Assembly (NCBI GenBank): GCA_000091205.1 | Contig: AP006499.2 | DNA: 64,000 bases | Direction: 5' to 3' (one strand) | Origin: Cyanidioschyzon merolae | Taxonomy: Eukaryota | Made by a program: the position numbers and the translations under genes | In this document: in pieces, positions 1 through 54,140 of the stretch | Position numbering within the stretch: the stretch's first letter is position 1 | How the letters are laid out: each line of letters begins with the position of its first letter | Notes under the pieces: model-generated | Told to the model about the DNA's origin: nothing | What the model saw: only the letters and a program-made list of their open reading frames with translations | Databases searched by the model: none

Positions 1-901
1 GCACATACTCACGCTTCTCACGGCATTGAATCATCTCAAGAAGCCACTTCGCTGCGCGCCCCTTGTCCCATTTGACTGCCGGTCGTAGTTCAAACACACA
101 TTTTCCGCGGGTTTTTCGGAGACCGTACTTGTACGCAATAGAATCCACAATTTTCTCGATTGTTGGCACATGCGCTGGGTCGCAGCGTCGATAATGGATC
201 GAAATCGAAAGAAGGTTATCCTCTATGCCGATGCCCCGAACAGCGTATCTCTCGGTAAGCAGCCGATCGACCTGACTCAGAAAACTTGGATCGAAAACAG
301 GCGGTGACGACGGCTCTGGCTGAATCGGCAGCGGAGGCAGCAACATGCTCCCCGGTGCTCCACAGTCGTCAATGTTACTGCACGCCATCTGCTTTGGAGC
401 CTGAACATTGGCGGTAACTGTTTCTTGTCCATCTACTCGCCGTTCGGGCTCAGGCAGATCCGATGCAGGCTCTTCGAGGCCGAAAATAGATCGCAAATGC
501 CTCGCGGCTTCACGTAGAACCGGTATGACTTCTTCCGCTATATGATAGCGGAAATATGCATCCTCTGGATCTTTAGTCTGCATCGCATCTGCAAGGGCGC
601 TGATCTCTCCATTCTCCAAAGAACTACCATTTGAAGGACGCGATTTTCGAAGAGGTACTTCTATGTCAAACCCATGCGAACCTGCATAGTATACGCCTTT
701 GATTCCAACAAGTTGTATAATTTTCTCCCGCGATCTACCTGTGACGATGGCGACGGGATATAGTCGCGCTAGCTCTTGTAAAATGCCGCGAACGCGCTCG
801 CCAAGCACAGCGCCATTTGGATCTTCTACGATGGCTGTTAACGTTCCATCATAGTCGAGGAGAAACGCGAACGTGTCTGCACGCTTTAAAAGACTATCCA
901 T
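1..901 (-). CDS. Trehalose-6-phosphate phosphatase (HAD-superfamily TPP domain) protein. N-terminal part only; the CDS runs off the left edge of the window, so it is absent from the ORF track.
   Basis: Reverse-complement translation starting at the ATG at 899-901 gives MDSLLKRADTFAFLLDYDGTLTAIVEDPNGAVLGERVRGILQELARLYPVAIVTGRSREKI...YYAGSHGFDIEVP...CVFELRPAVKWDKGRAAKWLLE. These match the TPP signature blocks: LDYDGTL (HAD motif I), VAIVTGRS, YAGSHG, and the ELRP...WDKG block. There is no stop codon before position 1. Confidence 0.75.
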   Translation of the reverse strand, partial: MDSLLKRADTFAFLLDYDGTLTAIVEDPNGAVLGERVRGILQELARLYPVAIVTGRSREKIIQLVGIKGVYYAGSHGFDIEVPLRKSRPSNGSSLENGEISALADAMQTKDPEDAYFRYHIAEEVIPVLREAARHLRSIFGLEEPASDLPEPERRVDGQETVTANVQAPKQMACSNIDDCGAPGSMLLPPLPIQPEPSSPPVFDPSFLSQVDRLLTERYAVRGIGIEDNLLSISIHYRRCDPAHVPTIEKIVDSIAYKYGLRKTRGKCVFELRPAVKWDKGRAAKWLLEMIQCREKREYV

Positions 902-5121: not shown

Positions 5122-5770
5122 TTTTAAAGTTTGACAGAACGTTTACATTGACTATTGATTCCAGGTTGTGGGATGGATATTGGCATTCGGGAAAGAGCCC
5201 ACCATGCTGCGCCCTGCTTCGAAGTTGCATCACGCAGACTTATTCTTGGATATACTGGTCGTTTCATGAGCTCCATCGTTCGCCGAGCCTGCCCTAGTGG
5301 CCCACGGTAGCGCCCATAGCGTTTGCGCGGATGCATCGCCGAGACAGAGCGGCTTTGCCATACCGCTGGAGGCGTCGGCTTGAGGCGTGGATCATCCGAC
5401 ACGGGATCGGGATTCATCGTCATAACGTGAGCCTGCGAGCTGCGCAGAAAGACACACTGCCTGCCGGAGCGGAACGCGATATGCTACGAGTCCACCGCGA
5501 CCAGGGCGACGCCCAGACACAGTATACCCGCTCCTAGTCCCAGAATAAAGTGCGTTGCGGACGAGCTGCTCGGGTCTCGCCGCATCACGACTCGATGCAG
5601 AGGCGTATGGAGCGTCTACCAGACAGACTCGTTAGGCTCTAGGGACATTCCGCATAGAAGGTAAACTTTCGAAAATACGGAAAACTTTGCTCCTTCCAAC
5701 GTTTACAGTAGAGGGAGAAAGAAAATTTAAAAAGTTGCTATTTAATGGTTAGTTTCGCTTCCTTTATGGG
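5122..5770 (+). repeat. Copy A of a non-coding dispersed repeat family, lacking the 5' ~200 bp module. Shares conserved blocks with copies at 25941-26585, 37474-38290 and 51131-51985.
   Basis: Conserved blocks read directly in the sequence: 'tgacagaacgtttacattg', 'ggatatactggtcgttt', 'gctcctagtcccagaataaagtgcgttgcggacgagctgctc', 'ggtaaactttcgaaaatacggaaaac', and 'gttgctatttaatggttagtttc'. No conserved ORF. Confidence 0.7.
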
Positions 5771-7051: not shown

Positions 7052-10000
7052 TTGGTAGGTCGATACTGCATGAGTGATCCGTTCCGAAACAAGCCAAATG
7101 CAAGAGCAACTGTTGAACAAGACGATTTGAAAGCAGTGAACGCTTTCTTCCGTACGCTTGGTCACGTCTCGTGCGATCCGAGTGCGATCGTTGACATCGG
7201 ACATTCGTTACTCTCTCTTCTAGAGAGTTCCCTGACAGACGTGGATTTAGAAAGTGACCTTTTCGATCTCATAGGGAATCCAGAGGTTGCCGCGGAGCTC
7301 CTCAAACTACGTCCAAGCGTTCAAAGGCACAGTAGCTCCATAAGAGCAGAACTAACTGGCAGCTATGGACGAGAACGAACAAAAAAGACGAAGCAGCAGA
7401 GTCCGGAGAAGTTTCTACCCAGTTCGAGTCTGAGCGGCTTACAATATTCTTCTCCCTTCGAAGCAAAAGGCAGAACTCGCACGGATAGTGCCACCCATGG
7501 CGGGGCGTTCAGGCAACGAGCTCCTTTTTTATCCGGCTCGGTTACCTCAACCACGTCCGCGACTGCAGACTCCATCCAAGAGCTCTCGCCAGACTTTCCC
7601 GGCAGCGACAATCCTTTCGTTGCTAAGCCTACATATCCCGCACCGAAATCAAGCAACATCGAGTTCCGGTCAGAGGAGCTTTATAAGGAAATCTTTGTAC
7701 CGCCACCGCAGCCTTGCTCTGCGGCCCAGCAGCGGTTGAAGGTTGCGGAATGTTTGGACCCTCCGTTGCGAAGAATTTTCGAGCACACAGAGCATTTCAA
7801 CCCTGTACAGAGCACCGTGTTTTCTGCGGTCTACCACACGAGCGAGAACCTGCTCATCTGTGCGCCAACCGGAGCTGGCAAGACAAATATCGCACTTCTG
7901 GCTATTGGGAGGGAGATTCTCCACCGAATGCATGAGCGTGCATGGCGTTGCGTGTATATCGCACCCATGCGTGCTCTGGCCTCGGAGATCGTGCGGAAGC
8001 TTGCGAACTCGCTGAGATCGCTATCCGTCGAAGTGTTGGAATACACCGGGGATACGAATCCGACGCTTCCTAGCTTGAGACGAAGTCAGGTGTTAGTGAC
8101 CACTCCCGAGAAATGGGACGTTCTCTCACGAAATAGTGCGCATTGGCAATCGGGGCTCGCTGCTTCGATTCGTTTGCTCGTCATTGATGAGATCCACCTT
8201 CTACACGATAATCGAGGTCCGGTACTCGAAGCTGTGGTTGCAAGAACGTTACGCTTAGCGGAAATTCAGCAAACGAGAGTTCGCATCGTCGGATTGTCAG
8301 CAACGCTGCCGAATTATGTGGATATCTCGGCGTTCCTCCGGGTGACTCCCGAAAAAGGGCTTTTTTACTTCGACGCTAGCTATCGACCTGTCCCCTTGGG
8401 TCAACGCCTCATTGGAATGCGAAAAAGGCGAGATCGAGGTTCCGAGTCTGCCCTTATCGAGGTCTGTTACGAAAAAGCTCGCTCATTCGTTACATGTGGG
8501 CACCAGGTCATCATCTTTGTCCACTCACGAAAGAAGACCAAACTCCTTGCCGAGGACCTGCTGAAGATGGCACGGGAGCGGAACGAGGCGTCTCTTTTCG
8601 TACAGTCAGAGCGCAGCCAAGATCAATTGCCTAGAACGATTCGATCAGCGGACCTGCGGATGCTCTTAATGCATGGCGTTGGTATTCACCACGCTGGTCT
8701 CGCTCGTTCAGATCGCATCGCGACCGAGACGCACTTCCGAGATGGGTCGATCACTTTGTTGGTAAGCACAGCCACTCTCGCATGGGGTGTCAATCTGCCT
8801 GCCAGGGCCGTCATCATCTACGGCACGAAAATCTATGATGCAAGTCGCGGGGGTTTTGTTGACATTGGCGTCCTCGATATTTTACAGATTTTCGGAAGAG
8901 CAGGTCGGCCGGAATACGACAGCTATGGAGAAGGAATCATACTGACGGAAGAGCAACGTCTTCCGTTTTTCTACCGACTCCTCAGCGTCCAGATGCCGAT
9001 CGAGAGTCAGATGTTGAACGGGTTCGCTCTTGTTGATCATCTGAATGCCGAAATCGCCACGGGGCACGTCACGTCGGAGCACGAAGCCCTGGCGTGGCTG
9101 GCATGTCTGTACCTTTCGGTACGCCTTGCCAAGAATCCACTTCATTATGGTATTGCTTGGGAAGACGTGCAGCGAGATCCAACGCTCTCAGCTTTTAAAT
9201 ATCAGCTGCTGAAGAAATCGATTGATGCTCTTGTTATAGCGGGCCTCGTTTCTGTTGATAGCGAGCTGTCGCAGCTGGAACCAACAGACTGGGGCATCGT
9301 AGCGAGTAGATTTTACGTATCGCACCAAACGATGCAGATCTTCAAAGAGAATCTGAGACAGGATGCGTCTGCGAGTCAAGTGATTCGATGCATCAGCTCG
9401 TCATCAGAATTCGAAAATTTGGCCTTACGAGAAGAAGAAATCCCTGAACTGGAAACCCTCTATGCTGACGCCTGCCCATATGAATATCCGCGGCATGCAA
9501 ACATCGCGATTAGATCCAAATTAGAGGATGAGTCGGAATATTTCTTGAATGGCTACACAGGCAAGGTATACATTCTTCTTCAGTCATATATATCACGAGC
9601 TACTGTGCATGATTTTGCATTGCTTTCAGACATGCGATATATCGAGGAGTCAGCAACAAGACTCTTCGGTGCAGTATTTGAGATTGCTCTCCGTCAAGGC
9701 TGGCCTGAACTTGCTCGAAACGCCAGTGAGTTGGCGCGAGCCGTTGAGCGACGTCTCTGGCCTTTTGAACATCCCCTTACACAAATGCAGAACGTTCAAG
9801 CCTCTGTTGTGGACCTTATCAAGAACAGGAATATACCGCATGATATTCAGATTTTGCGAAGACTATCGAACGAGCAATGGACGGATTTACTTGGTTCACC
9901 TTCTCACGTGCAAATCATGGCAGAAATAGTGTCGGAGTTTCCGTACTTAGAGGTATCTGGTCACCTGTCCGCGCTGGCGGAGCAGCTCTTTCGTATCCAA

Positions 10001-15489: not shown

Positions 15490-16048
15490 TTGGTTCTGAA
15501 ACCCCCGCGATACAGCCGCGAAAAAAGCGCCCTAGTTCATTCACGGCCAACTTGCACAGAAATCGCAATAACGGAATTCCTGGAACGTCGCGATCGATAT
15601 GGAGCACATCTACGTCGGTTTGATTTTTCAGTCGATGAGACTGCCTTCGGAAGAAGCTGTCGGAGCGGTTATGTGTATTTTCGGAGCGGAGCGCCTGTTG
15701 TATGTACGATCGAACTCGAAGAGAATGACGACATCATCATTTGTTCTAGCCGCCGTGGATTCATTAGGCGGCCTCAGTTTCGCTCGTAGAGAAGGCTCGT
15801 CCAACAGCGACCACCGCCTGGAGTCATTGAAAGCATTTCCCCTGACGTCTGGCGAAATACTTCTACTGGACCACGTTGCATTCAACTATCCCCAATGCGT
15901 CCGAGCCTTTGGTAAATCTATCGAAGTACAGCTGCTTTTCGTTCCCTCTTTCTCTCCGGGGTTCAACACCATCGAAGGGGAGATTTCAATCGTGAAACGT
16001 AATAATCGCTCCACTGGACGAATCGGTGGAGCCTTCAGCACACGGTGA
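15490..16048 (+). pseudogene. Tc1/mariner (IS630-Tc1-mariner, DDE_3) transposase relic, frameshifted.
   Basis: Two overlapping ORFs in different frames. The first carries the first-Asp region 'FDFSVDETAFGR'. The second carries 'ILLLDHVAFNYPQ' (the DNA-x-H block) and 'FVPSFSPGFNTIEGEISIVKR' (the LPPYSPDLNPIE...W..K block). Homologous peptide fragments recur at 17.1, 30.2, 45.6 and 47.3 kb. Confidence 0.7.
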
Positions 16049-16099
16049 CACGTCGGGACACATGTCGTCATGCTTCCGCGAGTCCTTCTCCCTCCGGGA

Positions 16100-16600
16100 A
16101 GGTCCTCACCAAAGGACATAAATAAGTGCATTCATTTTCTAAAATAAATTACCTAAAGAAAAAGCATGGATATGGAAGTTGAGGATCCTTGGGGGTCGTC
16201 ATCGGTGGCTGCCGGTAAAAAACGAAGAAAGTCACTTTTTCCCGATCATTGAGCACAGAAGAGAAAGTGAAGAACAAAAAGAAGAGGGCAGATAGGCGAG
16301 AAGAGGTATTTGCAGGACAGGACGACGACGAGACCCTGGTGACACGGAGGGCACAATTTCTAGCAATCCTTGCAATGATGAGTTCAACCAGCGGCAACTC
16401 ACGCAAGGAGTTTGTGAGCCGAGATTTCAATGTCGCCATCATTATCAGACGTTGTGTCGTGCTGAAGACGAGACCCGACGAGCTGCAGCGATCCTACTTC
16501 GCGAGGCAGCCTCTCAGGCTCTAAGTGTGCTGTGCAGAACTGAAGCCGAGAGCAGGTGGCCGGTCGAAAATGGCGGGGAGGCGTCTGTGAATGAGTATAT
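16100..16600 (+). mobile_element. Truncated 3' fragment of a TnpB/Fanzor-like element: the RuvC-III coding tail plus a conserved downstream non-coding segment.
   Basis: ORF 16249-16524 ends with 'FVSRDFNVAIIIRRCVVLKTRP', to be compared with 'FVNRDFNAAVNIRRYAVLENRP' at 53.6 kb. The downstream 'aggtggccggtcgaaaa...gaggcgtctg' is conserved with 53790-53850. The upstream 'gtgcattcattttc...gcatggatatggaag' is conserved with 31300-31350. Confidence 0.6.
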
Positions 16601-19302: not shown

Positions 19303-19469
19303 GAGAGCTTAGTCGGTCGCTTGTGACGTGGGATAAAATCCCGTACGAAAACGACGACTGGAGCGAATGGCTCTCGAGCCGACGCCCTCAACCGTGCGGC
19401 AATGCCATTCGGTCGCGGTGATGCATCCACACGGGAGCTACTGGCGCTATCGCGGGCGATCACTGTCGG

Positions 19470-19560
19470 CACTCGGGGCACGATGGAATGTATGAAGCGA
19501 CCAGTATATCCGAGAAGAAGTATGAGTTACGGAACTTGGAAGCAGGGAGTTTGATGGATG
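19470..19560 (+). repeat. Short ~90 bp conserved module 'ggcactcgg.gc..gat.g.a...tatccgagaagaagtatgRgttaYggaacttgga'. It is also the 5' module of repeat copies at 26398-26500 and 51131-51235.
   Basis: Direct sequence comparison of the three loci. Non-coding. Confidence 0.55.
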
Positions 19561-20810
19561 CTTCACTGCGCGCTGATATCAAGCACACTGTCGGGGAACG
19601 CATGCCTGTGTAGACGTTTTGCCCATTGTAAAAAACCTGTGCGAGGTTCCAAAGTCTACCATATGCGATGCCGCATTTATACTTCTTCCCAGCCTCGCTC
19701 GGTTGCGCTGGTGCGGCAGCAATTCTGCGTAGACATCGAGCACTAGTGTGCTATCTTTCCATCCTCACACGATCCGTGTGTGTGACCAAACTCCCAGGGA
19801 TCCGCGGATGCTGCCGGGAATCTTGGTATGGATCGGGCGCTCTTAGGGGATTTCTTCTAAAACTTAGGATTTGTACATATGACCAGACCTGCTTGGATGC
19901 GCACCTATCGATGACAACTTTGTCGTGGATCGAGCGCTCCATTGCGGGCAGGTCACGTACAGGCCATTGAACGAATCGATCCAAGGCGTTTCATACAAAA
20001 ATACGTTGAACTCGCCTGGATAGTTGCACAGTCGCCAAAATCATAACACAGAAATGCGCAGCCGCGAAGATTTTCTGGCGGTGTACAATCGGAGCAAGTC
20101 TGTCCATTATTGTAACGGCTGCGACTTCACGCGTACAGTTCATCCACATGGGTTCCAACCGTGTCGCGAGTCGCTGTCCTGGAGCGGAGCAGCAAAGCGG
20201 AACAGGAAATGCAACATGTACCGGCGAACAAGCAGTGCAGATTGCCTCGCGCAACACGATGATAGTGGTGAGGCTTTCGAGTCGTCCGGATTCGGAAAGG
20301 TGACGTCCCCCTCCCAGCAACTTCAGAGAATTTGCTCGCTGCTTGATCCAGCCGGCGATCATTTAGGAAAACGCGCATTCCGGATCCAGACCACTGGAAA
20401 TATAGCAAAAGGGACTGAGTTCAAGCTCTTCCACCACAAGACCGGCGGTTCACTCGAGCATAATCAAGCTAGATATGCTATTCGACAGAGAGCTCCATCA
20501 TTTTTAGGACTCAGGGAGACCAGCTGGAGGCTGCCTCTCTCTGGAAAAGCACCAGCACGCAGGACTGGTTCAAAAGCTACCCATGTCAAAATTCGCGTTA
20601 TGAAACTGAGCTGAAAATCAGCTCATCTGAACGAAGGTTTCCACGCTCAATTGGCCCATTCAGCAAGCCGCTCTGAGCAACCAGCTAACATTAAAGTCAA
20701 AAGTTGTACCATTTTCGTTGTAAACGCACACACGCCGCGAAAGCGAGTTCGTCACATGCGCCATTCGAGTGCTCACACACCGCGTCTCCTCCAGAACTGC
20801 AGTTGGCCCC

Positions 20811-25610: not shown

Positions 25611-25940
25611 AACACAACCTGTTGTGCTCGCTGTCTATTCTCGTTCTCCAGTCGAACTGAATGAAAGCTAAAAGGCATCGCGGATGACAGTCGGACAGGA
25701 AACGCTCGACAATGAACCCTACCGGCTGACCGCAGCGATGCGAAGCGGCGCATCAGCGTACAGGCGCGATCGATCCCCTGAGCGCCGCGCGCGGCAGCGA
25801 AGGGTTCATGCGCCGCTGCTCGCCGCGATGCTCGCATCCGATCCGTTCAGAACTGTGGATAGAAAGCATGATCTAGTTTGTGAATATATGTCTATTAATT
25901 GCATATTATGTACTGATTCTGGTTGATAAGTGGTTTTTTC

Positions 25941-26585
25941 GATGACAAAAAAATTCGTTTCCATTGGCTATGGATCCCTGGTTGCGCGATGGATAATGGT
26001 ATTTGAAAAAGCGTCGATGATGAAGCACCTATGCTCAAGTTCCATTACCCACACTTCCTCTCGGATATACTGGTCGTTTTTTACATGCTACCATGTGCTG
26101 AATGCCTGCCGTGAAAACCCTCCGTGGTGCTTACACCCCTGGAGCAGAGCCATCACGGAGACAGAACGGCGTTGCCATCCGACTAAAGGGCGTCGTCTGG
26201 AATTGTCGTTCACCCGACATATGGTCGGGATTCGGGATCATTCTGTGAGCCTGCATGCTGTGCAGACAGACGTACTGCCCGAGGCAGCGCGAAGCGATAT
26301 ATAAATAGCTCACTGCGACCAGGGCGATGTCCTCAGTCGGATGGCGCAGCTGTTCTGTCTCCGTGATGCTTCTGCTTTAGCGGTATGAGCGCTACGGCAG
26401 GTGCTCACGGCAGGTACTCGGCGCAAGATAGCATGTACAAAACGGACAGTATATCCGAGAGGAAGTATGGGTAATGGAACTTAAAGGTAGGTGCTTCATC
26501 ATGGACGCTTTCCCCAAGGGCATTATACATATGCCGAATTCTGGGAAGCATGTTCAATGTAAAAGTTTTGTCATCGAAAAATCAA
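25941..26585 (+). repeat. Copy B of the non-coding dispersed repeat family, rearranged.
   Basis: Shares the 'cgatgacaaaaaaattcgtttccattgg', 'ggatatactggtcgtttttta' and 'cattctgtgagcctgcatgctgtgcagacagacgtactgcc' blocks and the 5' module 'tatccgagaggaagtatgggtaatggaactt' with the other copies. It contains a perfect 19-bp internal inverted repeat, 'catcacggagacagaacgg' at about 26150 against 'ctgttctgtctccgtgatg' at about 26350. It ends with an inverted copy of the 'atgacaaaac.tttacattg' block at 26555-26580. Confidence 0.65.
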
Positions 26586-30400: not shown

Positions 30401-31259
30401 CGGGATTCCGTCACCGCTTTGAGCCTGGGGGCGTACACGGATCGAGATCTCTCGAGCGCTTTCACAACCTGGAGCTTCCTTCTGGTACTTGTTTCAGCAT
30501 GGTCAACATAGCGTTCCGTGAATCCTCTATCGAATAGAACAGCGAGCACTCGGGCGCGCAGCAGACATAGTACTCGCCAAGTAGTCACCCAGCTCAAGCA
30601 CGTCATCGTAGAGTTCGCCGTCGGACCCGGAAACGGAGGAGCGAACGGACAGGACCCTTTTCTGGCTGTCAAATTGGCATGTGCCGAACGATGAAGAAAG
30701 GGTTCATGATCTGCAGGGCGACCCTTTGAGGAACAGTTTTCGGGTATATCGGGGAACACTTGACCACAATCAGATGTCATCGCCGCGATGAGCGCACCGC
30801 GACTTTACGCGAGGAAGACGCAAATGGCAAGCAAAGCGTAGATCGCCTCTCCCGTTCGAGCATTAAATGCGTGAGCAGCAGCCGGAAGCAGTGAAATGGT
30901 GGCTTTGACACTGCCATGAACATCCTTCTACTTCTGAAAACGGAGCTAGAGGGACAAGAGAATTCTGCGTTGCTACAGGCGCATATGAGAGAGACAAGGG
31001 AAGTAGTCAAACATCATGCCCACCAAGACTGGTATTGACGAAAGTGAGAAGCGACCCAAAGCCTAGTCTTTTCTCCCGAGTTAGAGGGTCGGTCCTCGTT
31101 TGTTCAGAAGTGAGTGTAGATCTGCCTCCACGTTGGGGGCCTATTAATGAAATGATTCATAATCCGCGTCCTCCTGCTGGCAAACCTGCTCTTTCTACTT
31201 ATGGTCTATCACCTCAATTTAGTTCCAATCTCAGGTGAGCGTCATCGAATGCTTTTTCG

Positions 31260-31700
31260 CAGTTTTCAGCAGGAGCATTGGAGTGCATTCATTTTGAAGG
31301 AATGAATAATCCAAGGTGAAGCCATGGATATGCAGGACAGAGATCCTGTTGTCCCAGTGTTGCCGTATACGACCAATAAAACGAAAAATCTATTTCACGC
31401 GAACCATCGAGCGAAAAGAGCATAGAACGAACAAGAAATAGAACTGGGGAGATGGGCGATAAAAGGTGTTTGCTGGACTGGACGATGCCGAGACTGAACT
31501 TGCACTGAATACACGAGTTCGATGAGTCCCTGCATTGATGAGTTCAACCTGGTTCAATCAATACAAGAGGTTCACGCAGCGTGACTGCAACGCTGCTAGC
31601 AGTATCAGACGATATTCGATGCTCAAGACGGGACGCGAGGAGCTGACACGATCCACACTTGTTGGACAGCCTCTCAGGATTGAAGTCTATGGCGAGATGC
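31260..31700 (+). mobile_element. Second truncated TnpB/Fanzor-like 3' fragment (degenerate RuvC-III tail plus conserved flank).
   Basis: The 5' boundary block 'gtgcattcattttgaagg...gccatggatatgcagga' is shared with 16113-16190. 'gcattgatgagttcaacctgg' is shared with 16375-16395 ('gcaatgatgagttcaaccagcgg'). The peptide is 'FTQRDCNAASSIRRYSMLKTGRE'. The downstream 'gacagcctctcaggattgaagt' matches 16503-16525. Confidence 0.55.
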
Positions 31701-34279
31701 TGCAATTGATAGCATACGGCAAGTCGATATGGGCTGAGATGCATCTCTCGGGTGGATGCTCATTGACCCTCTATGGTCGCGGAACGTTTGCGATGCATTG
31801 TGCATCCTGGGGATCGCTTGGCGTCTCGCTCGAGGAAACTTCGCCTAGCCTCCTTCGCATTGATGCAACTCGTCAGGCAACTATTTCCAGTCTCGAACGC
31901 GGGGTTGCGAGCGGTCCACATTCCCCTGAAATTTTTTTTACCAAACCTTCGTGAGACACGACAACTAATTTTGGGATAAAGTATGGGATCCGGCTTGATC
32001 CTCGGATCAGAGAATATGATACATACGCTACTCTGAATCCCTCGGCACGACGCCGTACCACGTCGCTAATCAAAGCATGTACTTCGCTGGTGCGAACAGT
32101 ATCAGACCGACCTAAAACAGCAATATTGCGTGCTCGTCAACGCCGAGCGTTACTTCAACCGCACCTTTTGGGTGCTGTAGCCCTACTTTACTGGCTCGGA
32201 AAATTGGAGACTGATGAAACGGAATCTTGGGATGGCGATGGAAGCAACTGACTAGCTCGTGGTGGAAGACATCGAAGTAGCAGAGAGTTCGGAACAGATG
32301 TCGCAACGATACTTAGCGTCCCGTCAAATCGTCGATGTTTGTCGTGATGATCTCGGCCACGGAACGACGAACCTCTTACTCAAAGGATGGTGAAAAGGTG
32401 ATGCACCCTTCATTGCATCTTGCGCTGCCATTCGTTCACGAATGGAGTTATCCAGAGCCAAGCTTACCCTCCCTTCGAATCAGAGCACACCAGCCGCAAC
32501 ACGCGTCTCTTTGGTGTGGTTCTCGTACGGTACATCAAGACCCAGAAAATAACTCAAGATATTTGCATAGTGTACTGAATAGCCTCCTTCGCGAGCTATA
32601 GCTCGAATTTGCGAGCAAGTATCAAGCATTCGAAAAAGTTCGCCAAGGCTATTGGGAAAGCTTGTCCAAGCATTCTGTTTCACAGAAAGGAATTAGATAG
32701 AGGATGAACGGGTGATGGAGACCAACGGAATACACATCTGAAAGAACCATGTGAAACTTTAGCCTAACTCGATCGCGGAGACTCATTTCCGACCGTAAAA
32801 GGTAGATGAAGCGCAAGAATTCGCGGTAAGTGGGAAACCCTGCTTACATTAAAAACGTGGTAGTCTCCATATCTCTCAATCGCCGGGAACGGAGCCAAAG
32901 ACCTGAACGGAAATCGGATGAAGCTGCTCATGTCTTGTAGGGCTCGGTATTATCGGGAGCCGGGCGTGATGTCCAACAGATGGCGTTCGAACAAATGGAG
33001 CACCAGCATAGTCGGAACCCGTCACGACGCTGCAAGCATCATATCAAGCTGAGTTGGATACATTTTGAGCCTCGCTCAGAGGGCATTTTAGCTCCCAGAT
33101 AGCTTATGAGCGGAATTTTTGGCGGGCATACATGAAAACGTGCTGGGGCCGCCAACAGATTCGGTTGTTCACAGGCCATAGGCTTGCATGAGCCAAAATT
33201 TTCAATCACTTTCAAAATGAAATGAGCGACAAATCGGGACGTTTGGTTGAAGCCTACGGCGCTGGACGTGATGAGGCGCACATGCGCTGCGCTTGTACTC
33301 CTTCGGCGAGAGCATGTAAAAATTGTGGGAATTTGATTCTGCATCGGTCCAATTGCCGTATTCAGGACGTCATACTCGAATCACGAGCACAGGTGTACGG
33401 TTGAACTGGAACAGAGGGAGAGAGTGAAGCAAAGCCGGATGCATGAGATGGTGTCCAATAAACTGACCCAAGCTCAAGTGGCGAGGCATTTGACGGTGAG
33501 ACGCTTGTGTCTTGTGATTCCACCAGCAGCAAATGCGCAAAATAAGTTGCTGCTCTGAGCCTTCAGCGTCTTGATCAACTTCCGCATTTGTCTCGTGCTT
33601 CTGAAGCGTCCAGTGGCTTTCTGTCGAGTAAACTTTTAGGGGAATGGAATAGAACTCAGCGTTGACATTCTGCAGAAATGCTGTAGGCTTCCAACGAAAA
33701 AATAGGTAACCAGAAGAGTGGAGACAGGATTATTGGGACGTGCATGGCGCTGTTGTGCTAGGGTCAGCAATTAGGAGAGGTGGGTGCTCCTTCTAGATGC
33801 ACTGGGACGGCTTTCCTCGGTAACTGGTGAACGATTATCATTTTACATGGCATTCATTACTGAGTATACTCAGTGTTGAAAATGAACCGGATTTCTACGT
33901 CCTCAGTTCAGAGAGTGAATCCAAAATCAGCCTTGCTCCCTAAGTGTTGTTATTCTTCAACGTCTTGATGCCGCCCCCGTAGCCACATACGACGTGCAGG
34001 ACAATCCCATCGAGTACTGGAAGCTGGCACCGGATCGCAGCAGCGCACGAAGCGATACACCAAGCAAGGAGACCTGCACCAGTAAATGCGGCTGGCGAGG
34101 TAATCAGGACAAGCTCGCCATAATGTGTATGAATGTCTTTCACAAAAGATACCTGCATAGGTGCCGAGCAAGGAAGCTGCCAACGCTTCTACTCTGTCGC
34201 TGCCTTCACGCTGTACATATAGAAGTCAATCGCCGGCATCCAGCGGCTTTCACGAGTAGAGCCCTGTCACGGATTCAGC

Positions 34280-36974: not shown

Positions 36975-37473
36975 CGCAGTGCCACCATGTGCGACATTTC
37001 ACCGCATTGCACCCTACTGTTTTCGGTTGGAACACGAGTTCCCACGCCGGCTACCCGAAAACTGCGTGCCGAACGAGCCGTCAAGCGTTCGTAGACGACG
37101 AGACACTTTTCGGATCTCCAGACTAGAAAGTTCTTATTTTTTTGTAACAGTAAAACTACTTTGGCTGTTTCGTTTCGTCATCAGTTTCGCTGTTCTTGAA
37201 CGTAGATCGAATCCAATCATAAGGCTCGATGAACCAAAAAGCTGTCAGGCCCACTAGCAGACCCCAACGTGCTGCTGCTCCAACATCTACTGGACGTAGC
37301 CGACGGAAAAGCTGCTGCAAAGCTGGTACACCTCGAGGTCTCGCTGCGTTCATATCACAAACACAAGTGTCTATCCCCGGAGCACCTCGAAAACAACTCG
37401 TACAGCGGTCAGTCGTCCGGGATGCGCGATGTGCCCTGGCGGCCGCACGCGCTGCGCATTGTCCGTTTCTTTC

Positions 37474-38290
37474 TCGATGATAAAATTCGGTTGACCATGG
37501 ATCCCAGATTGCGGGACATATAATGATGATTGAAAACGCGTCCATCTTGATGCATCTTTCTTCGAGTTCCATTGCTTTCACTTTCTTTCGAATATACTGG
37601 TCGTTTTTTACTTTCTATCATGTACCGAGTGCCTGACTGCGCCCACAGTAGCGCTTATACCGGTGGAGCTGATGCAGCACGGATACAGAACAGCTGTGTC
37701 GTACCACTGAGGGTTTCGGATCGAGGAACGATTCACCTGATACGGAATCAGTGCGGACAATCATTCTGGGAGCCTGAAAAGTGGGCAGAGAAACCTGGTG
37801 CCTGCAGCAGCGCGGACCGATATGCTAGGAGATAATTGCAATATTGGCGACGCCCAGACGCAGTATCCTAGTACTTGTCTAAGAATAAAGAGTGTTGCCG
37901 ACAAGCTGTGCAGGTCTCGCCACAGCACCTGCCACTCGAGGGAGTATGAAGCACTAGCCCGGCAGACCCGTCCGGTTCGCGGGACCTTCCACACAGAAGG
38001 TAAAGTTTCGAAGATACGGAAACCTTTCCCCCTTCAACGCTTTCCATGAAGGTCGAAAGAACCTGTTATTGAGTTGCTATTTAGTGGTTAGTTTCTGTTC
38101 TTTCGACAGTGGATCGGGATTCGCTTTCATTCTGGGAGCCTGCAGACTGCGCAGACAGACCTACTGCCTGCGACAGCACGGAGCGATACGCAAGGAATCC
38201 ACTGCGACCCAGACGACGCTTAGACGCAGCATATCAGCTCCTAGTCCCAGAATAAACTGCGTTCCAGACAAGCTGCTCAGGCCGCACTAA
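37474..38290 (+). repeat. Copy C of the non-coding dispersed repeat family, carrying an internal tandem duplication of the ~190-bp 'cattctgggagcctg...tagtcccagaataaa...gacaagctg' unit (about 37737-37930 and 38125-38290).
   Basis: Shares the 'tcgatgataaaattcgg', 'cgaatatactggtcgtttttta', 'tgcctgactgcgcccacagtagcgc', 'ggtaaagtttcgaagatacggaaacc' and 'gttgctatttagtggttagtttc' blocks with copies A, B and D. The ORFs called here (37156-37581, 37229-37480, 37798-38049, 38069-38290) are not conserved between copies. Confidence 0.7.
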
Positions 38291-38666
38291 GCGCATTCCC
38301 TGCAAAGCCATGCCTTCTCTCGGAGTCTAGGATCGTTCACAGGAACCAGTTTATCCCAGCTACGCCATTGTTACCGGCAGCTGGACTATCATGCCCAGCG
38401 AACCTCATTGACAAACATTGTACATGTTCACGTCCGGATCTCGTCGACGTCTCGCGTACGCAAAGCGACGATTTCGCGCACGATCCCTGACTGCGTGTGC
38501 GTACGTCACCTCGTTACATATGCCGCCGCAGCTGCGCTGTCGCCACGTTAGCTGCAAGCACTTTGTTCTGTTAAGTTTGTGAAGTTTTAGTGCTCCAAGA
38601 AACGAGCAAGTTCCTGCCTGCGGAAACGTAACGCTAATCGAAGGGGCAGCGGTTAGGACTGAGGCA

Positions 38667-45620: not shown

Positions 45621-47179
45621 TGCTACATGTCAAGCAATATGATTCCAGAAACTCCCGTTTTTCTATCTGGATGGACAATTGGTCTTGGATTTGGACTTCA
45701 GTCATCACAGAGAACCGTTTCTATCCAAGGTACACCTCGGCTTTGCACGAAGAAGCTTAGGCTAATTAAAAAGTTCCCGGCACGGTCTCCAGTCTTTGTT
45801 TTCATTCTGATACCATTTTTAGGGAGAACAAGATCGAATTCCACGAATCCTTAATGGAAAAGAAGAGCGAGCGCTTCCACGTGCAACGGACATAGTCCTC
45901 CCCGAGCCAATCGCCCAGAAGAAATCAGGAATCTTAGAGTACGGTGCTGGACGCGAGAGCGGAGGAAACATCCAATGAAGCTTTCTGTGCCTATCAAGCG
46001 AACGCACCAACTGATGAAGAAAGCATTCACGTGCCGCAGCGCTGCGCTTCGATGAAGAGAAGGTGCGGTGGACGCATGGGAAACCGCACCCCAGCCCAGC
46101 GTGACCGGTGCGAAGGACACACCGAAGATGTACACAAAGCAGATGAAAATAACCAGAGGATCCCAGCTGGCAACGATCGTATATTTATGAAACGGACCGC
46201 CAACACCGGGACGCAGTGAATTCCGGATTTTGAGGCTGCCATCAATGTATCTCGACTGCTAAAATCGTAGCTGGAGGCACAGCAGAAACCAGCGCATTAG
46301 AAACTGAAGATAACAGAGTCGAAAAGGAAGCAGTGGTAGAAAGGATGCACAAATGCTAATGCTGATGGCAGTGGGAAAAGAATCAGAGTTTCAGACGAAC
46401 GCTAGACTTCGACAAGGCGATGCATTTCATTCGATCCAAACAGTTCAGTACAAAATATCAGTGAAATAGAAAATGTCCCGCGACCATGCAGGATCAATGA
46501 GCACCCACGGATAGATGCCTCCCAGGCTTTTTTGACCCGCTGTCTGCTATCGGTTTCAGCTTCTCACTGTACGCTTCGAGCGTGAGGGGATGTCCAACAA
46601 AATTTGGACCCCCAGCTCCTCGGGTCCCGTCTCCAGCACCGCATATCGTCTGATACTGATGGCGGCGTTGAAGTCTCGGTTCATAAACTCCATACGTTTT
46701 GATGCCTCTAGTTGATCTTATCAATGTGCGTATTCCCCGAGCTCGCGCTTTCAGTACCATTTGCTGCTCTGCCAACTCTCCGTGCGTGTCCAATGCCGAA
46801 GCGCTCCGTTGGCTTCTCTCCGTTACGGCCTTCTGAAGCGTACATTCCTGCTCTTTCCATAAGTTTGAACATGAACGCACTTCCTGACGCCTTTAGATGA
46901 TTACTTCCCCGGAGAGAGACGGACTTGCTGAGGGACTATGACATGTATTCCCCGTGTGTCACCGTGTGCTGAACGCATTAGCGATTCGCCCAATGGAGCG
47001 ATCACTGCGTACCAAGATAGAAAATACTCATAGGATGGGGTTGAACCACGGAGCTAACGGAGCAATGGAAAGCAACTGTATCCCTATAGAATTCGCAAAA
47101 GCTCGGGCGCAAGGGGAACGATGAAATGCAACGTTGTCCGATAGAATAGCGTCTCCAGACCTGCAGAGCAAAAGTCTTC

Positions 47180-47460
47180 AATTATTCCACAATGTGGAAT
47201 GGTGTTTTCTGAGCCTTCTATTCGAGTTCGATCGTACATTTAACAGGTTAACTGCTCTGCAAATACCCGGATAAGTTGTGACGGTTTCGTCCGAAGGACG
47301 TCTCATCGACCGAAAACATAAATGGACGTCCCTGTGTTTCATACCGATCGTAATGTTCCAGGAACGCTGTCGTTGCGATTGGAAGGAAGATGCCATTGCT
47401 TGAACGATGACTCTTTTTGAGATTGTATCCCAGTGTTTTCAGGATCATAGGCGCGACTTG
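47180..47460 (-). pseudogene. Tc1/mariner DDE_3 transposase relic, minus strand.
   Basis: ORF 47248-47448 (-) reads '...TAFLEHYDRYETQGRPFMFSVDETSFGRNRHNLSGY', which is near-identical in motif order to '...TEFLERRDRYGAHLRRFDFSVDETAFGRSCRSGY' at 15.5 kb. Confidence 0.55.
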
Positions 47461-48690: not shown

Positions 48691-49675
48691 ACCTCGCTCT
48701 GGGTGGTAATCGTCCGCAACCTGTGCGGCCGACTGGGATGATTTCCACGTTGAAAGCACATTTGGACTTTGTTCGCTTTGGGGGAGTCTTCGCAGATCAG
48801 AGCTGTTGTCGTCGAGGCTACCCGCGGCCGCCAGCTCGCTGGTCGGCACTCGAGTCTGGGGCAGCCTGGTGCAGGCGACGTGCTGCGTTCGCTACAGACA
48901 GCGCGTTCTGCGGTGTCAGGACCTTTGTTATTCCAAGACCTCTTCTGGAGCGCAAGGCACCACAAGCGGTAACGAGCATCCAGTAGCAAGCAAGCAAGCT
49001 AGCATAGACGCGCCCCCGATAAAGTGCACATGTGCAAATATGCCTGCAGCGCTGCCGTCGACAACGGACTTGTCTATGTGCAGCCAGTGCATGACACCGA
49101 TATGCGTCCGTTCACGCTTCGTCTGCATCGGGCCAGCAACTGGTCTGATGATATTCTCCAGGCAGCGATTGAGATGAACCTGTCGTGGGGCTGTCTGTTT
49201 ATGGAAGCGCGCCATGTAGGTGTACCTGGCCAAGAGTTGGTCATGGAAACAAGGACGCCTCTCCATTCCGTCGTTTTGCGTCTCGTGTAGTACTCGAATC
49301 CGATATCCACCGGTGCATCCAAGGCGCTACGTTCAATGCCGTGGAGCGTGACCTGGAGACACTGCCGGGTTTCCGCTTCGTGCGTGCCCTTCCTGAGACT
49401 GTTTCGCACCGCGTTTCAACATGTATTCGGGAAGGACGCGTCTTTAACGCTGCTCCTCGGTTCCATCCATCACAGTCTGGTCATGAACAGACACGTCGAA
49501 CGTGCGCAGCAGAAACGGGAACCCCAAAAACATCTCGTTGCGAGGCCGTCTCCGCTGGCTCACAGGCCGTATGATCGCGCATTGCACTACGACCAAGTCA
49601 AGCTAAAAGCATGTCGTTTACCACTCGAGGTCTGTGCGACCGCGCTCTCCAACACACTAGGTATTTTACACAACA

Positions 49676-50398
49676 TCACTTCCACCAGGGCTTCTCACCA
49701 GTTCGAAAGTCGGTCTCCTTCCAGGGTTTGATCTGTACGAACCCGTCATCATCCACTTTGGTATGTGCCAGAGCGAGCGGAAGCGGAGCTGGACCGCGCA
49801 CCACCTTCCCTGTACGATCGTACTGCGAACCATGGCAAGGGCAAATGAACTTGTTCTGTGCTGCGTTCCAAGGCACCACGCAGCCGAGGTGCGTGCAAAC
49901 AGCATTCAGTGCGTAGGTTTCGAGCTCGCCGGCGTCGTTCACAACAAGATACGTGGGCTCCCCGTTCAGGCCTTGCACAAGATCACGAGAGCCGGGGGGA
50001 TGCGTCTTCAGATACTCCTCCTTCTTGATAGGCGTCCCGAGGGCGTCCTTGGCAATCGCGCCGCCTGAACTCTTGTTCTTCGACGGCGGCATGAAGTAGC
50101 TTGCGTATGTGCTCAGCATGATGCTTGCTGGGAGTCCAACTGAACCCAAGAGAATGAGGTTCAGCAGCGTGCGCTTCCCCATATCTGGTATGTAGTCGTC
50201 ATCGGAGCCCGAGGAGCCGCCACCGTCGCCACCGCTTCCGCTCCCTCCACGCGCGTTATCAACTGTACTCGGCAGCGCATACGTCATGCGCAGTGCCACA
50301 CGCTTCCTGCCCAGCGTTGTATGCTGACGTTCGACCGTACCAGGATAACACCGAGGCACCGTTCTAAACGTAAGGCTATTTGTTGTAAGCACGAACAT
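49676..50398 (-). CDS. petC: Cytochrome b6-f complex Rieske iron-sulfur subunit precursor (nuclear-encoded PetC with a transit-peptide-like N-terminus).
   Basis: '[72 protein letters not shown]' contains both Rieske boxes, CTHLGC and CPCHGS, and is b6f-type over the whole C-terminal domain. It also has the N-terminal membrane anchor '[20 protein letters not shown]'. The first ~70 aa are hydroxylated/basic with a Gly/Ser-rich linker, consistent with a plastid transit peptide. Confidence 0.9.
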
Positions 50399-51130
50399 TA
50401 TCCAGCGTTATACACAACAATGAAACTGCGAGTTGCAATCAAGTAAGAACGCAAACGTTCATGCAACACGAACGGAAAAATCGTTTCGTGATCATCGACG
50501 ATGGGCGGCAGCGTGCTCGCGATGCAGGGCTTCGAAGGATCGCGGCGTTCGGTGCAGCGGAATCGGGATGCCAGAGACGCCAGCACACTTAACCTTTCTG
50601 TGCCTGTGCTGGAAAAAAAGAACGCAGCTATCTCTTTGAGAGACATCAACATCTGGGAATCACTGTGGTAAATGAAGGCCAGCCACTTACTTTGAGTGTA
50701 GTGCTAGCAACTGATGGTCCCGTAACTGAGCTCCAGCACTCACCAGTTGTCAGCGAACTCATACTCTACCCCCTAGGTGGAAGGTCCAGCGAACCAGATG
50801 CGCACACGGGACCAGTGTTACGCGTACCTAATCACTGGTGGGTGCCAAGCACAGACCCGAGTCGCCAACCGACGGCAACGCTTTCCATGTACGATCACGC
50901 AGGAGAGAGGCGGCTCCCAGGATTCATCGTAACAGCCAAGTTTCTCCAATGTGTTGTGAAGCGAAAGCAAGTTTTGCATCCGCAGGCTGTCCGAGCACAA
51001 ACTGACAACGAGACCCAGTTCTACGTCAGGTGAAGCATGCCTCGAGCAGACGCCGTCTGCGGTACGGCAACGCCGTTCTGTTTCTGTGCTACGACAGCAC
51101 CGGCGCTACAAGCGCTATTGAGGCGGATGT

Positions 51131-51985
51131 TCACGGGCAGGCACTCGGCGCCCGATAGCACGTCTGAAACACCATTACATCCGAGAAGAAGTATGGGTTA
51201 TGAAACTTGGACGTAAGGCGTGGAATGACGAAAGTTCCACCGCGCGCAGGCATCAAGCGCACAGAGTCGCGGCACGCTCGCCTGTGTGAGAAGTTTTCAC
51301 ATGGAACAAAATCCGCTGCATTTGCTGTTGCCGCTGATTTTTCTCCAATGACAAAACGTTTACATTGTACTTGGATTCCAGATAGCGAGATGGATGGGTA
51401 TAGCTGATCGAAAAAGTGTCCATCATGATGCACTCTACCTCCATGCTCCGTTCCTTATACTTCCTTTCGGATGTACAGATCGTTTTGTGCGTTCTGTAGT
51501 GCGACCGAGTGCCTGCTTTGGGCACCCGCCTTAGCGCCTATACCACTGGGACGGATGCATCATGGAGATAGAACAGCGTTGCCATACCACTGAGGGCGAC
51601 GGATCGAGGAACGCTTTACCTGATACAGCGTTGGAGTCCAGAATAATTCTGGGAGCCTGTAGGCTAAACAGACAGAACTTTTGGCTGCGAAAGCACGAAC
51701 CGATATACTAGGAGTCTACTGCGATCTGGGCGACGACCAAACACAGCATCCCGCATCTAGTCCCAGAATGAACCGCGTTGCGGACGAGCTGCTCAGGTCT
51801 CGCCACAGCGCCCGCTACTGGGGGGAGCACGAAGCACGAGTCCGGGAGACTCGTCCGGCTCGCGGGACTTTTCGCCTAGAGGGAGGATTCTTCAGAATAT
51901 GGAAACCTTTTCCGCCTTTTCAAAGTTTATCGTAGAAGGGGAAAGAAATTGCCGTATCGTTGCTCGCTAGTCGTGAGTCTCTTTT
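51131..51985 (+). repeat. Copy D of the non-coding dispersed repeat family (the most complete copy). It lies immediately upstream of the TnpB/Fanzor-like reading frame.
   Basis: It contains the 5' module 'ggcaggcactcggcgcccgatagc...catccgagaagaagtatgggttatgaaacttgga'. Further blocks are 'atgacaaaacgtttacattg', 'ggatgtacagatcgtttt', 'cattctgggagcctgtaggctaaacagacag', 'tagtcccagaatgaaccgcgttgcggacgagctgctcaggtctcgccacagc' and 'ggaaaccttttccgcc'. It ends about 225 bp before the first in-frame codon of the Fanzor-like frame (52211). Confidence 0.7.
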
Positions 51986-52210
51986 CTTTGTTCAACATAG
52001 CGCAGTCGATTTGCGCACCAGGGAGATCTGTCAGTTTCGAGTCACGACGCGTATGCTGCCGTTGAAGGGAAACGCGATCCTGATCAATAGCGTGCTGCTC
52101 TAATGTGCAAGTTGTACTTGCGTTAAAGACGTGGCAAAGTACAGTTCTTCAGTTCATTTGTGTTTCAAACCTCAAACAAGTGTATTCAACTGTTTTTTCG
52201 CAGTATATAA

Positions 52211-53776
52211 CTGAAGCGTTCAAAGTCCGTTACAAAAAATAAAGAAGGAAAGTCATGGAAAACCAAGTCGACGATCCTGGAGGCCCAGTGTGGCTGGCCG
52301 CCAGAAAAAAAACAAAAAAATAGTGCCGAGTCCAGAAGAAAGCGAAGTGAAAAAGAAGCATTAGGGGAGGCTCTACGTCGAAGGCAGCAAGAAAGACGTC
52401 TGTACAACGAGATGGCGGTGAAAGCCTGTCTTCGTAAACATACCAAGGATCCGTACAAGGAAAAGTTGCGAGGCGCTATCAGAAACCGTGTCGAGTTCTA
52501 ATCCATGAGTATTATAAAGGCGTCATCAGTACGAATGCATTTGGTGTCGGAGATGTACGGAGACGTGACGCACATGGAAACAGTCGAGGTTCCGGATGCG
52601 TTTTCCGACAAGACTTCTATTCGTCACCTGATGCTTGGTACAGGGGAATCGTCGACGAAAAAAGAGCTAGTCCATGCCTTCCACGAAAACTTTGCAGATT
52701 TCCGCTTCGAGGGTACTCGATACAAGGGTGACGGAAGTATTTACACATACGGGGCGATGAAGTACATCACGAACCTGAGGAACCATTTGACTATGAACCC
52801 GGAGCGTTTCATGATACGCACCGTCTTTGCGCTGTACCCGGGACTGTCTCGCAAAGGAGTATGGGCGATTATCAATGGGATCACGAACGATCGCAAGCAT
52901 GAAGATGACAAGGAGGCGGATCTCGCGACGAAGAAAGTGCAGGATAACGACTCTGTCGTTCACGCGGACCCTGGGAATACGAATATCATAACCATCGCAG
53001 CACCCAAGCGTGGGGAAGATGGTACTGACGGTACCTTGCGTCAGAAAGATATGTGTCTTTTGAGGTTCTCGAGAGCAAGATACTATCGAGAATCCGTTAT
53101 AATGAATGCGAGAAAGAAAATCGACACATGGAATGCAGGAATGAAGGATCACCTGGAAGCTTTGAGGGAGGTGACGAGCCACGGGGCGGACTTTACAGCT
53201 TCTCGGAAATTCATGGAAGTTCGTGTTGCTCATTGGGATGCGCTGTAGAAAGAATATACAAAGCCCCGGCGGGCTCGTTTGCGTATGAATTTGTATTGTG
53301 GGAGGCAGCGTGCATTCGCAATCTTTTTCAATGAGTTGCGTGCCCTGAAGGAGGACGAGCGTCAAAGTCTCGTAGTAGCATACGGAGCAGGGCGCTGGAA
53401 GACCCAAAAAGGATGTACACCAGCTCCAACGACAAGAACGTACAAGGAGTGCGCACGGCGTTTTGTTACGGTGCCTGGAGATGAGTTCCGAACATCGTAT
53501 GTGCATCATGAACTGTGATGTACGCTTCAGAGAGTGGAGATGGAAAAGTGCCAGAGGAGCCCTGAGGATATAAAAAAGTACGGAGCGCTGACAGATGAGC
53601 AAATGGAAAGGAGGGCGAAAGTTCGAGGATTGCTTGCATTAGTAAGTACAACCAGTGATGGCAAGAAACGTATGGAATTCGTGAATCGTGACTTTAATGC
53701 CGCCGTCAATATAAGGAGATATGCGGTGCTGGAGAATAGACCTCCAAAGAAGACACAACAGGACTTAATTGGATAA
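52211..53776 (+). pseudogene. TnpB/Fanzor-like (OrfB_IS605-type RuvC RNA-guided nuclease family) gene, about 520 codons in one frame. It is interrupted by three in-frame stops: TAA at 52498, TAG at 53246 and TGA at 53516. It is probably a decaying element gene, though I cannot exclude very short introns.
   Basis: All three ORF-track segments (52505-53248, 53279-53518, 53534-53776) and an upstream segment (52211-52497, '...KRSEKEALGEALRRRQQERRLYNEMAVKACLRKHTKDPYKEKLRGAIRNRVEF') lie in the same frame. Motifs: RuvC-I-like 'VVHADPGNTNIITIAAP' (compare GIDxGxxN); RuvC-II region 'LVVAYGAGRW...YKECARRFVTVPGDEFRTSYVHHEL' (compare IvxEdL...YKA...V.VdE.yTSk.C); RuvC-III 'MEFVNRDFNAAVNIRRYAV' (compare D-x-N-A-A-x-N-I). 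The zinc-finger region is degenerate. Confidence 0.6.
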
Positions 53777-54140
53777 TCACTCAAGGTGGAATTATATGAG
53801 ACAATATTGGAAGCGGTAGTAGGTGGCCGGTCCAAAAAACTAAGAGGCGTCTGCACGTCAGCTGAAGATGTCTAGTCTAGGGCGGGTCACTCGCCGCTAT
53901 TGTACACGGCCGCTGGTGGCAACGTTTTTCGTTTGAAAGGCGTTTGCTGTCTGTCGATCGAAGCCACCATAGGCTCACACCTAACTAGAAGCCCCGGTTT
54001 GAAACTGCATAGGCAGCGTATAGAGATCCAAATCGTCGACAAGCCACTTCTTCTCAATGCTCGCGAGCGAGCAGTTGCAAGTATTTGGAGGACACACTCG
54101 CTCGAACTAACGCACCTGTCACTGCGAGCGGTTCCACATC

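Follow-up and report, generated by a model that had tools for sequence, protein, structure and literature searches.

Introduction

In the genome of Cyanidioschyzon merolae the Fanzor1 element CMe-1A is present about 150 times, each copy approximately 80% identical to a ~3-kb (3169-bp) consensus, the 5′ 635 bp of which are 95% identical to the whole of a separate element of about 70 copies, TE-N2_CMe (Bao and Jurka, 2013, PMC3627910). Neither CMe-1A nor TE-N2_CMe has TIRs, both are of unknown class, and their TSDs could not be determined (PMC3627910). A transcribed 3.2-kb interspersed repeat, present in 253 copies that make up ~5% of the genome and containing an ORF that resembles WSV486 of WSSV, had been reported before (Nozaki et al., 2007, PMC1955436). 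Since WSV486 is the shrimp-virus Fanzor of Bao and Jurka (2013, PMC3627910), the 3.2-kb repeat of Nozaki et al. is CMe-1A. The literature as a whole gives 70-250 copies, located on all chromosomes (PMC3627910; PMC1955436). For the Fanzor1 elements CRe-1-3 of Chlamydomonas, the Helitron2 relatives were shown to insert downstream of TTTT and to generate no TSDs (PMC3627910).

CMe-1A and TE-N2_CMe have been listed as "class unknown" since 2013, and their class is left here as it stands in the literature. The parent repeat was reportedly already described in the genome paper of 2004, as it was in that of 2007. The present analysis concerns a stretch of 64,000 nucleotides of C. merolae DNA, referred to as the window, in which an initial annotation made from the sequence alone had marked an unrecognised repeat family, one copy of which abuts a Fanzor-like gene, and had read it as a MITE or foldback element, a structured ncRNA family, or the left-end region of the Fanzor transposon. 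The family is in fact known, being catalogued in Repbase and in the 2013 literature (Bao and Jurka, Mob DNA 4:12), and the false "novel element" flag is hereby removed, a single catalogued TE family and its rearranged remains accounting for the five loci in the window.

The window is ~51% G+C with long, intron-free ORFs, and its gene content is eukaryotic, including a Brr2-like helicase, an Ezh2-like SET protein, Vps36 and nuclear PetC, the ORF of which (49676-50398, minus strand) has 99% identity with the cytochrome b6/f Rieske protein of C. merolae 10D, which assigns the window to the nuclear DNA of C. merolae or of a very close strain. A search of the window for tRNA genes found none.

Materials and methods

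The reference was the 3169-bp CMe-1A Fanzor1 consensus in Additional file 2 of PMC3627910, which was aligned to the window with blastn. A search with the consensus Fanzor1 protein gave 43 relatives, all of them in metagenome-derived assemblies from JGI, ENA or Logan, and a scan of metagenome contigs gave about 80 (80-83) related loci totaling ~1 Mb, a few of which are named below by number (L013, L020, etc.).

Results and discussion

The repeat family is real and non-coding

Self-comparison of the window revealed a dispersed repeat of ~0.64 kb at 5132-5764, 25935-26581, 37470-38294 and 51340-51989, the copies of which are pairwise 65-75% identical over 380-650 nt (E values of 1e-47 to 1e-99), together with inverted partial copies at 26325-26576, 19373-19635 and 51026-51330. 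The dispersed family annotated at four places is thus present, with a unit of ~0.64 kb, but the copies are not all in the same orientation as had been stated, since three partial copies are inverted (26325-26576, 19373-19621 and 50767-51228 when aligned to the consensus). In the self-comparison the borders of the repeat are the limit of similarity between copies, and because similarity stops there the copies are not segmental duplications. Every frame of every copy contains 5-13 stops, leaving no conserved ORF, as the annotation had correctly noted, and the mismatches between copies are without a three-base pattern that would indicate codon periodicity. The repeat family is real and non-coding.

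The repeat matches the 5′ module of CMe-1A and is probably TE-N2_CMe

The ~636-bp unit is, with high probability, TE-N2_CMe, a non-coding and non-autonomous element with the same sequence as the 5′-terminal module of the ~3.2-kb Fanzor1 element CMe-1A. Like the repeats in the window, TE-N2_CMe resides in C. merolae, is ~635 bp long, lacks TIRs, is non-coding and is dispersed, and its sequence equals the first 635 bp of CMe-1A, where copies A and C of the window align end to end at 77-79%. The presumed match to TE-N2_CMe itself is based on the published statement of that equivalence (PMC3627910) and on the agreement in length and boundaries. Nothing substantive differs between the two, the window copies being ~21-23% from the consensus where ~20% is quoted for the family, except that several window copies are truncated, inverted or juxtaposed. 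Relative to CMe-1A, copies A, B, C and E are entirely without the Fanzor part, whereas copy D follows the consensus collinearly, across the Fanzor ORF and as far as the 3′ end. The window copies are dead relics, old and decayed, of an interspersed repeat already known from C. merolae, and nothing points to a host function.

Solo, truncated and inverted copies in the window

Two copies are solo and of the TE-N2_CMe type. Copy A (5129-5764, plus strand) matches consensus 4-636 at 5132-5764 (79%, E=1e-149), with a T-rich tract immediately 5′ of it and a 3′ flank that has no similarity to the remainder of CMe-1A, while copy C (37475-38103, plus strand) matches consensus 1-636 (77%, E=2e-138) and is abutted by a fragment of 177 bp (38105-38281, plus strand; consensus 269-445, 84%). 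This fragment had been annotated as a ~190-bp tandem duplication in copy C; since it is 84% identical to the consensus and only ~71% identical to the homologous part of C, it probably comes from a second copy and not from a local duplication. Copy E (19373-19621, minus strand) is an inverted partial copy consisting only of the 5′ ~255 nt (consensus 7-255, 73%, E=2e-40), and its 5′ end accounts for what had been taken for a lone 90-bp 5′ module at 19470-19560; on the minus strand both the T-tract and the 5′ terminus can be seen, and no Fanzor unit adjoins the copy.

Copy B is composed of a truncated plus arm (25940-26332, plus strand; consensus 1-385, 78%, E=2e-86) and a truncated, inverted minus arm (26325-26576, minus strand; consensus 1-248, 82.5%), which are 80% complementary over 196 nt. 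The perfect inverted repeat reported inside it is present but measures 20 bp (26053-26072 and 26447-26466), not 19, and its TIR-like end is the 5′ end of the inverted partial copy. The foldback and "TIR" of copy B are two truncated copies placed tail to tail.

An old and diverged inverted partial copy (50767-51228, minus strand; consensus 74-534, 64.5%, E=2e-43), also present at the orthologous site in L084-L087, lies head to head with copy D and supplies the "5′ module" at 51171-51221. Copy D as first delimited (51131-51985) is a real copy but merges this older fragment, which extends to 51228, with an element that truly starts at ~51346-51348. B, E and 50767-51228 are truncated and/or inverted, and in all three the consensus-position-1 end is kept (the aligned part of 50767-51228 being consensus 74-534). 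The hairpin, TIR and foldback oddities of the family are adjoining truncated and inverted copies; the internal inverted repeats that had been quoted are present as blocks, but come from inverted partial copies or from decaying ancestral hairpins.

Three of the four main repeat loci (5129-5764, 25940-26576 and 50767-51989) lie between divergent ORFs, with PetC (minus strand) to the left of copy D. The spacer location is not significant with four loci and probably reflects tolerance of insertion in a compact genome.

Copy D is the 5′ end of a decayed Fanzor1 element

The TE-N2-equivalent 5′ module of copy D (51348-51989, plus strand, with the start at ~51346-51348) is part of a collinear 83% match and belongs to a whole CMe-1A element (51348-53942, plus strand), which consists of the 5′ module, a 270-nt leader, a frameshifted Fanzor1 ORF and a 3′ hairpin region. 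Consensus 3-1558 is found at 51348-52908 as one collinear match (83%) and consensus 2124-3169 follows at 52895-53942 (87%), consensus 1559-2123 being absent by internal deletion. The ORF, with an ATG near ~52255, is frameshifted; a tblastn search of the element with the consensus Fanzor1 protein gave 65% and 83% identity, and RuvC-like motifs are visible in the ORF fragments. Copy D is therefore the true 5′ end of an internally deleted and frameshifted CMe-1A, and the suggestion that the repeat is the left-end region of the Fanzor transposon is borne out by the collinearity of D with the consensus from position 3 through the ORF to position 3169.

At the D site, three related lineages either have the element (L084, L086, L087 and L034/35) or diverge ~25 nt before it and lose synteny (L085). 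Past the D element, none of the four lineages compared is syntenic. This pattern suggests ectopic recombination at the D repeat, or an assembly chimera. The 5′ part of the element is 92% identical to the orthologous L084 element and its TE-N2 part is 97.5% identical to L035, and its 3′ part (52895-53942) is 81-83% identical to L084 (5854-6851), with the ORF part 73% identical to L035. Orthology to the element at this site in the related lineages does not extend to the 3′ part (81-83% versus 92%). The D element resembles a recombinant of two CMe-1A copies, the junction of which coincides with the 1559-2123 deletion.

Divergence between lineages at this locus is strongly mosaic over a few kb (49234-52908 compared with L084, L085, L086 and L035). 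Between Cyanidioschyzon lineages it is 3-5% in the PetC 3′ flank, 14% at PetC 4-fold sites and 20% in the spacer 50399-50766, and the old TE fragment near D diverges by 4% in one lineage and 16% in another, a mosaic that suggests recombination between Cyanidioschyzon lineages. The TE-N2 part at D is 97.5%, 91% and 92% identical in different lineages, compared with 14% divergence at PetC 4-fold sites, but because divergence is mosaic along the locus this conservation of the repeat cannot be interpreted in terms of purifying selection.

The 5′ module is a separable cassette

More than 25 independent 5′ modules were found in the ~1 Mb of related contigs, where full-length CMe-1A elements (1-3169) are numerous and consensus 1-~640 is found several times as a solo copy; the flanks of these copies, with orthologous duplicates removed, are unrelated to each other. 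Consensus 634-644 is where the solo copies stop (A, C, L013, two in L028, and L074/78), and local alignment of solo-copy 3′ flanks to consensus 600-3169 gave only noise. For this reason the possibility that solo copies are internal-deletion derivatives that retain the last ~25 nt of CMe-1A was rejected.

Conversely, the Fanzor unit (consensus ~648-3169) is found behind at least four different, unrelated upstream regions (e.g., L020 ~1900-2240, L045, L048 and L074). These include TE-N2 in direct orientation, the 5′ part of TE-N2 inverted, such that position 1 and its A-run abut consensus 648, and a type represented by GTCGGACACGTGTCC. Because the Fanzor unit has several upstream regions, the 636-bp module is a separable cassette, and this arrangement points to a modular exchange of left ends among Fanzor units. 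NJ analysis of the 5′ modules (23 independent ones; mean JC distance, 0.42) yielded a star-like tree, which points to an old burst, and solo and Fanzor-linked copies are intermixed in it with no separation. TE-N2 may be an independent lineage, or may arise repeatedly from CMe-1A.

Terminal features and mode of transposition

A T-rich tract of ~8-11 nt, with the consensus GATTTTTTTTC directly followed by CGATGACAAAACG, precedes nearly every independent 5′ end, including all six 5′ ends in the window. In an alignment of the flanks, conservation upstream of the tract is at background; "GA" often precedes the tract and its length is fairly constant, and the T-tract may belong to the element rather than to the target. 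The check for TSDs and TIRs that the initial annotation had proposed was run on flanks and termini and found neither: the best flank-to-flank 10-mer match scored 7.53 versus 7.42 in mismatched controls, and the 5′ (CGATGACAAAACG...) and 3′ (...TCTGTTCTTT) termini are unrelated in A, C and at least 20 copies elsewhere. No empty site was found among 83 loci, nor in the PetC-orthologous loci of three related lineages. Truncated copies, both in the window and in the related loci, are consistently anchored at the consensus-position-1 end, and no convincing 5′ hairpin was seen. In the CMe-1A consensus, 10 nt at the 5′ terminus are matched by a site that precedes the 3′ hairpin (GACAAAACGT / ACGTTTTGTC). 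This match overlaps the Fanzor stop codon, at ~70 nt from the end; most copies do not conserve it, and it may be due to chance. A long TIR, in which the 5′ flanks would be an inverted start of the Fanzor unit, was also considered and rejected, as L038, a head-to-head arrangement, is the only locus to show it.

The lack of TIRs and TSDs, the T-tract and the truncation anchored at position 1 exclude a cut-and-paste mode that relies on TIRs and TSDs. The terminal features may, as a tentative proposal, fit a 5′-anchored single-strand mode (HUH or rolling-circle, Helitron2-like) better than cut-and-paste. Because there are no TIRs or TSDs, and given the T-tract, the 5′-anchored truncation and the 3′ hairpin of the Fanzor unit, it is conceivable that the 636-bp module carries a cis-acting 5′ end that would be used by a trans-acting enzyme, and one such enzyme might possibly have mobilised both the short element and the composite of TE-N2 and Fanzor unit. 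An extended model, in which CMe-1A and TE-N2 would be Helitron2-like (HUH) elements, the 636-bp module would be an exchangeable left-end cassette and the guide RNA would lie in the 3′ hairpins and read into the TTTGYTG flank, is decidedly speculative. Were this extended model true, a red alga would have an RNA-guided nuclease that is tied to a rolling-circle carrier, and the target motif of the nuclease would be defined.

The non-autonomous Helitron2 carriers of Fanzor1 in Chlamydomonas, CRe-1/2/3, resemble CMe-1A in having a Fanzor1 cargo, no TIRs, a T-run directly 5′, a hairpin-bearing 3′ end and families that share one end only. They differ in that the candidate asymmetric terminal repeat of CMe-1A is 10 nt and lies ~70 nt from the 3′ end, not 20-30, that the T-tract in C. 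merolae may belong to the element, and that 3′ ends are over-represented in the CRe families, whereas 5′ ends are over-represented in the C. merolae family. We know of no RepHel partner in C. merolae.

The T-tract can also be viewed from the opposite strand as the short A-rich 3′ tail of a SINE-like or non-LTR-dependent retroposon, an unlikely reading in which the partial copies ending at 248, 255, 385, 494 and 581 would be 5′-truncated retrocopies and non-LTR RTs would be the machinery. Almost all independent copies do have an A/T tract beside position 1, the end at which truncated copies are anchored, but there is no TSD signal above the mismatched controls, and the tract is short and nearly constant in length, unlike variable poly(A) tails. 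To our knowledge, moreover, all characterised Fanzor carriers are DNA transposons, which was counted against such a retroposon. C. merolae does contain 26 non-LTR elements, three of which have an intact RT (PMC1955436), but the transcript of the retroposon would be antisense to the Fanzor ORF, which is intact in some CMe-1A copies (PMC3627910). The terminal features fit a retroposon less well than the 5′-anchored single-strand mechanism.

RNA structure in the repeat and at the 3′ end of the Fanzor unit

The 636-bp unit might alternatively encode a functional structured ncRNA family, either the Fanzor omega-RNA or another, which is very improbable. The ancestral sequence does contain hairpins, the two best of which are ATTCTGGGAGC / GCTCC..CCCAGAAT and a 10-bp stem, CTTTCCCCCT / AGGGGGAAAG, near the 3′ end of the unit, with 77% of cells paired across copies, and the parent repeat was reported to be transcribed (PMC1955436). 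Against this, Rfam gave no match to the whole window at gathering thresholds, nor to 50700-52300 at E<=1, and RNAalifold with 23 independent copies gave -1.42 kcal/mol, which is essentially no consensus structure. The pairing of the repeat hairpins (77.0% of cells, compared with 77.6% in column shuffles) and their covariation are not above shuffles, 436/500 and 376/500 of which reach the observed values, and the single-copy MFE is unremarkable against dinucleotide shuffles (z = -0.61 and -1.64). The copies are ~35% different, with stems broken at random, and the repeat hairpins are a property of the ancestral sequence that is decaying at random in the copies. The structured ncRNA offered by the initial annotation thus finds no backing in Rfam, in a consensus fold or in covariation beyond shuffles.

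The omega-RNAs of TnpB and Fanzor are normally located at the 3′ end, where the scaffold overlaps the 3′ end of the nuclease ORF and the right end of the element, and the guide lies in the flank. The repeat is situated 270-900 nt upstream of the ORF start and is also present without any ORF, whereas a covarying hairpin is found at the 3′ end of the Fanzor unit, outside the repeat under study (53870-53955, plus strand). This hairpin, just after the Fanzor stop codon, is 87.4% paired compared with 83.7% in shuffles (1/500 reach this value) and has 5 double-sided changes where 1.6 are expected (1/500 shuffles), and it is accompanied by a conserved flank. Specifically, in most independent copies ...GAAAGGCG is followed by a conserved TTTGYTGYSGSTG, and a conserved TTTGYTG... 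runs ~13 nt past the end of the published CMe-1A consensus (53943-53955; 32 independent 3′ ends in the related loci), so the published consensus appears to stop ~13 nt short. Two subfamilies of CMe-1A have different but equally self-complementary terminal hairpins, CGTTTTTCTTTTGAAAGGCG and CGTTCGACTTTCGAACGGCG. Based on its position, conservation and covariation, the region 53870-53955 is a probable omega-RNA or right-end signal.

For specialists, the 5′ T-rich boundary, the ~13 extra 3′ nt, the covarying 3′ hairpin and the swapping of 5′ cassettes are minor additions that may assist in classifying CMe-1A and in finding the omega-RNA and TAM of C. merolae Fanzor1, a nuclease of a thermo-acidophile that is present in ~150 copies and might be of interest for genome editing.

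Foldback structure and local duplication

A MITE or foldback element with TIRs that moves by cut-and-paste, the first of the readings offered by the annotation, draws on copy B, with its complementary arms and its outer ends that are inverted copies of the same terminus. This reading is extremely improbable, however, as copy B consists of consensus 1-385 and 1-248 tail to tail, and A, C and the copies elsewhere have unrelated termini and no detectable TSDs. That the repeats are merely intergenic or regulatory DNA duplicated locally and confined to the region, as five loci in 64 kb that are mostly intergenic between divergent genes might suggest, can be dismissed, since the family is a true dispersed repeat with neither duplicated flanks nor confinement to the window: the flanks are unrelated, other contigs carry dozens of copies beside different neighbors, and the literature places its 70-250 copies on all chromosomes (PMC3627910; PMC1955436).

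Other Fanzor-related sequences in the window

A second, much more divergent Fanzor-like coding remnant is located at 32900-33678 (plus strand), with 32-40% amino acid identity to residues 453-709 of the CMe-1 protein, and belongs to a Fanzor family other than CMe-1A. Three further loci (15561-16587, plus strand; 31200-31746, plus strand; 46513-47380, minus strand) join consensus ~786-1071 to ~2839-3083 and have the appearance of an internally deleted CMe-1A derivative. Two of these three are preceded by a repeat of ~0.5 kb (15561-16058 and 46949-47380; 71-73%, inverted), and derivatives of the 15561-16587 type probably constitute a further non-autonomous family, whose 5′ cassette differs. The ~0.5-kb repeat also matches L034 at 8172-8866 (query positions 4980-5674 of L034:3193-13124).
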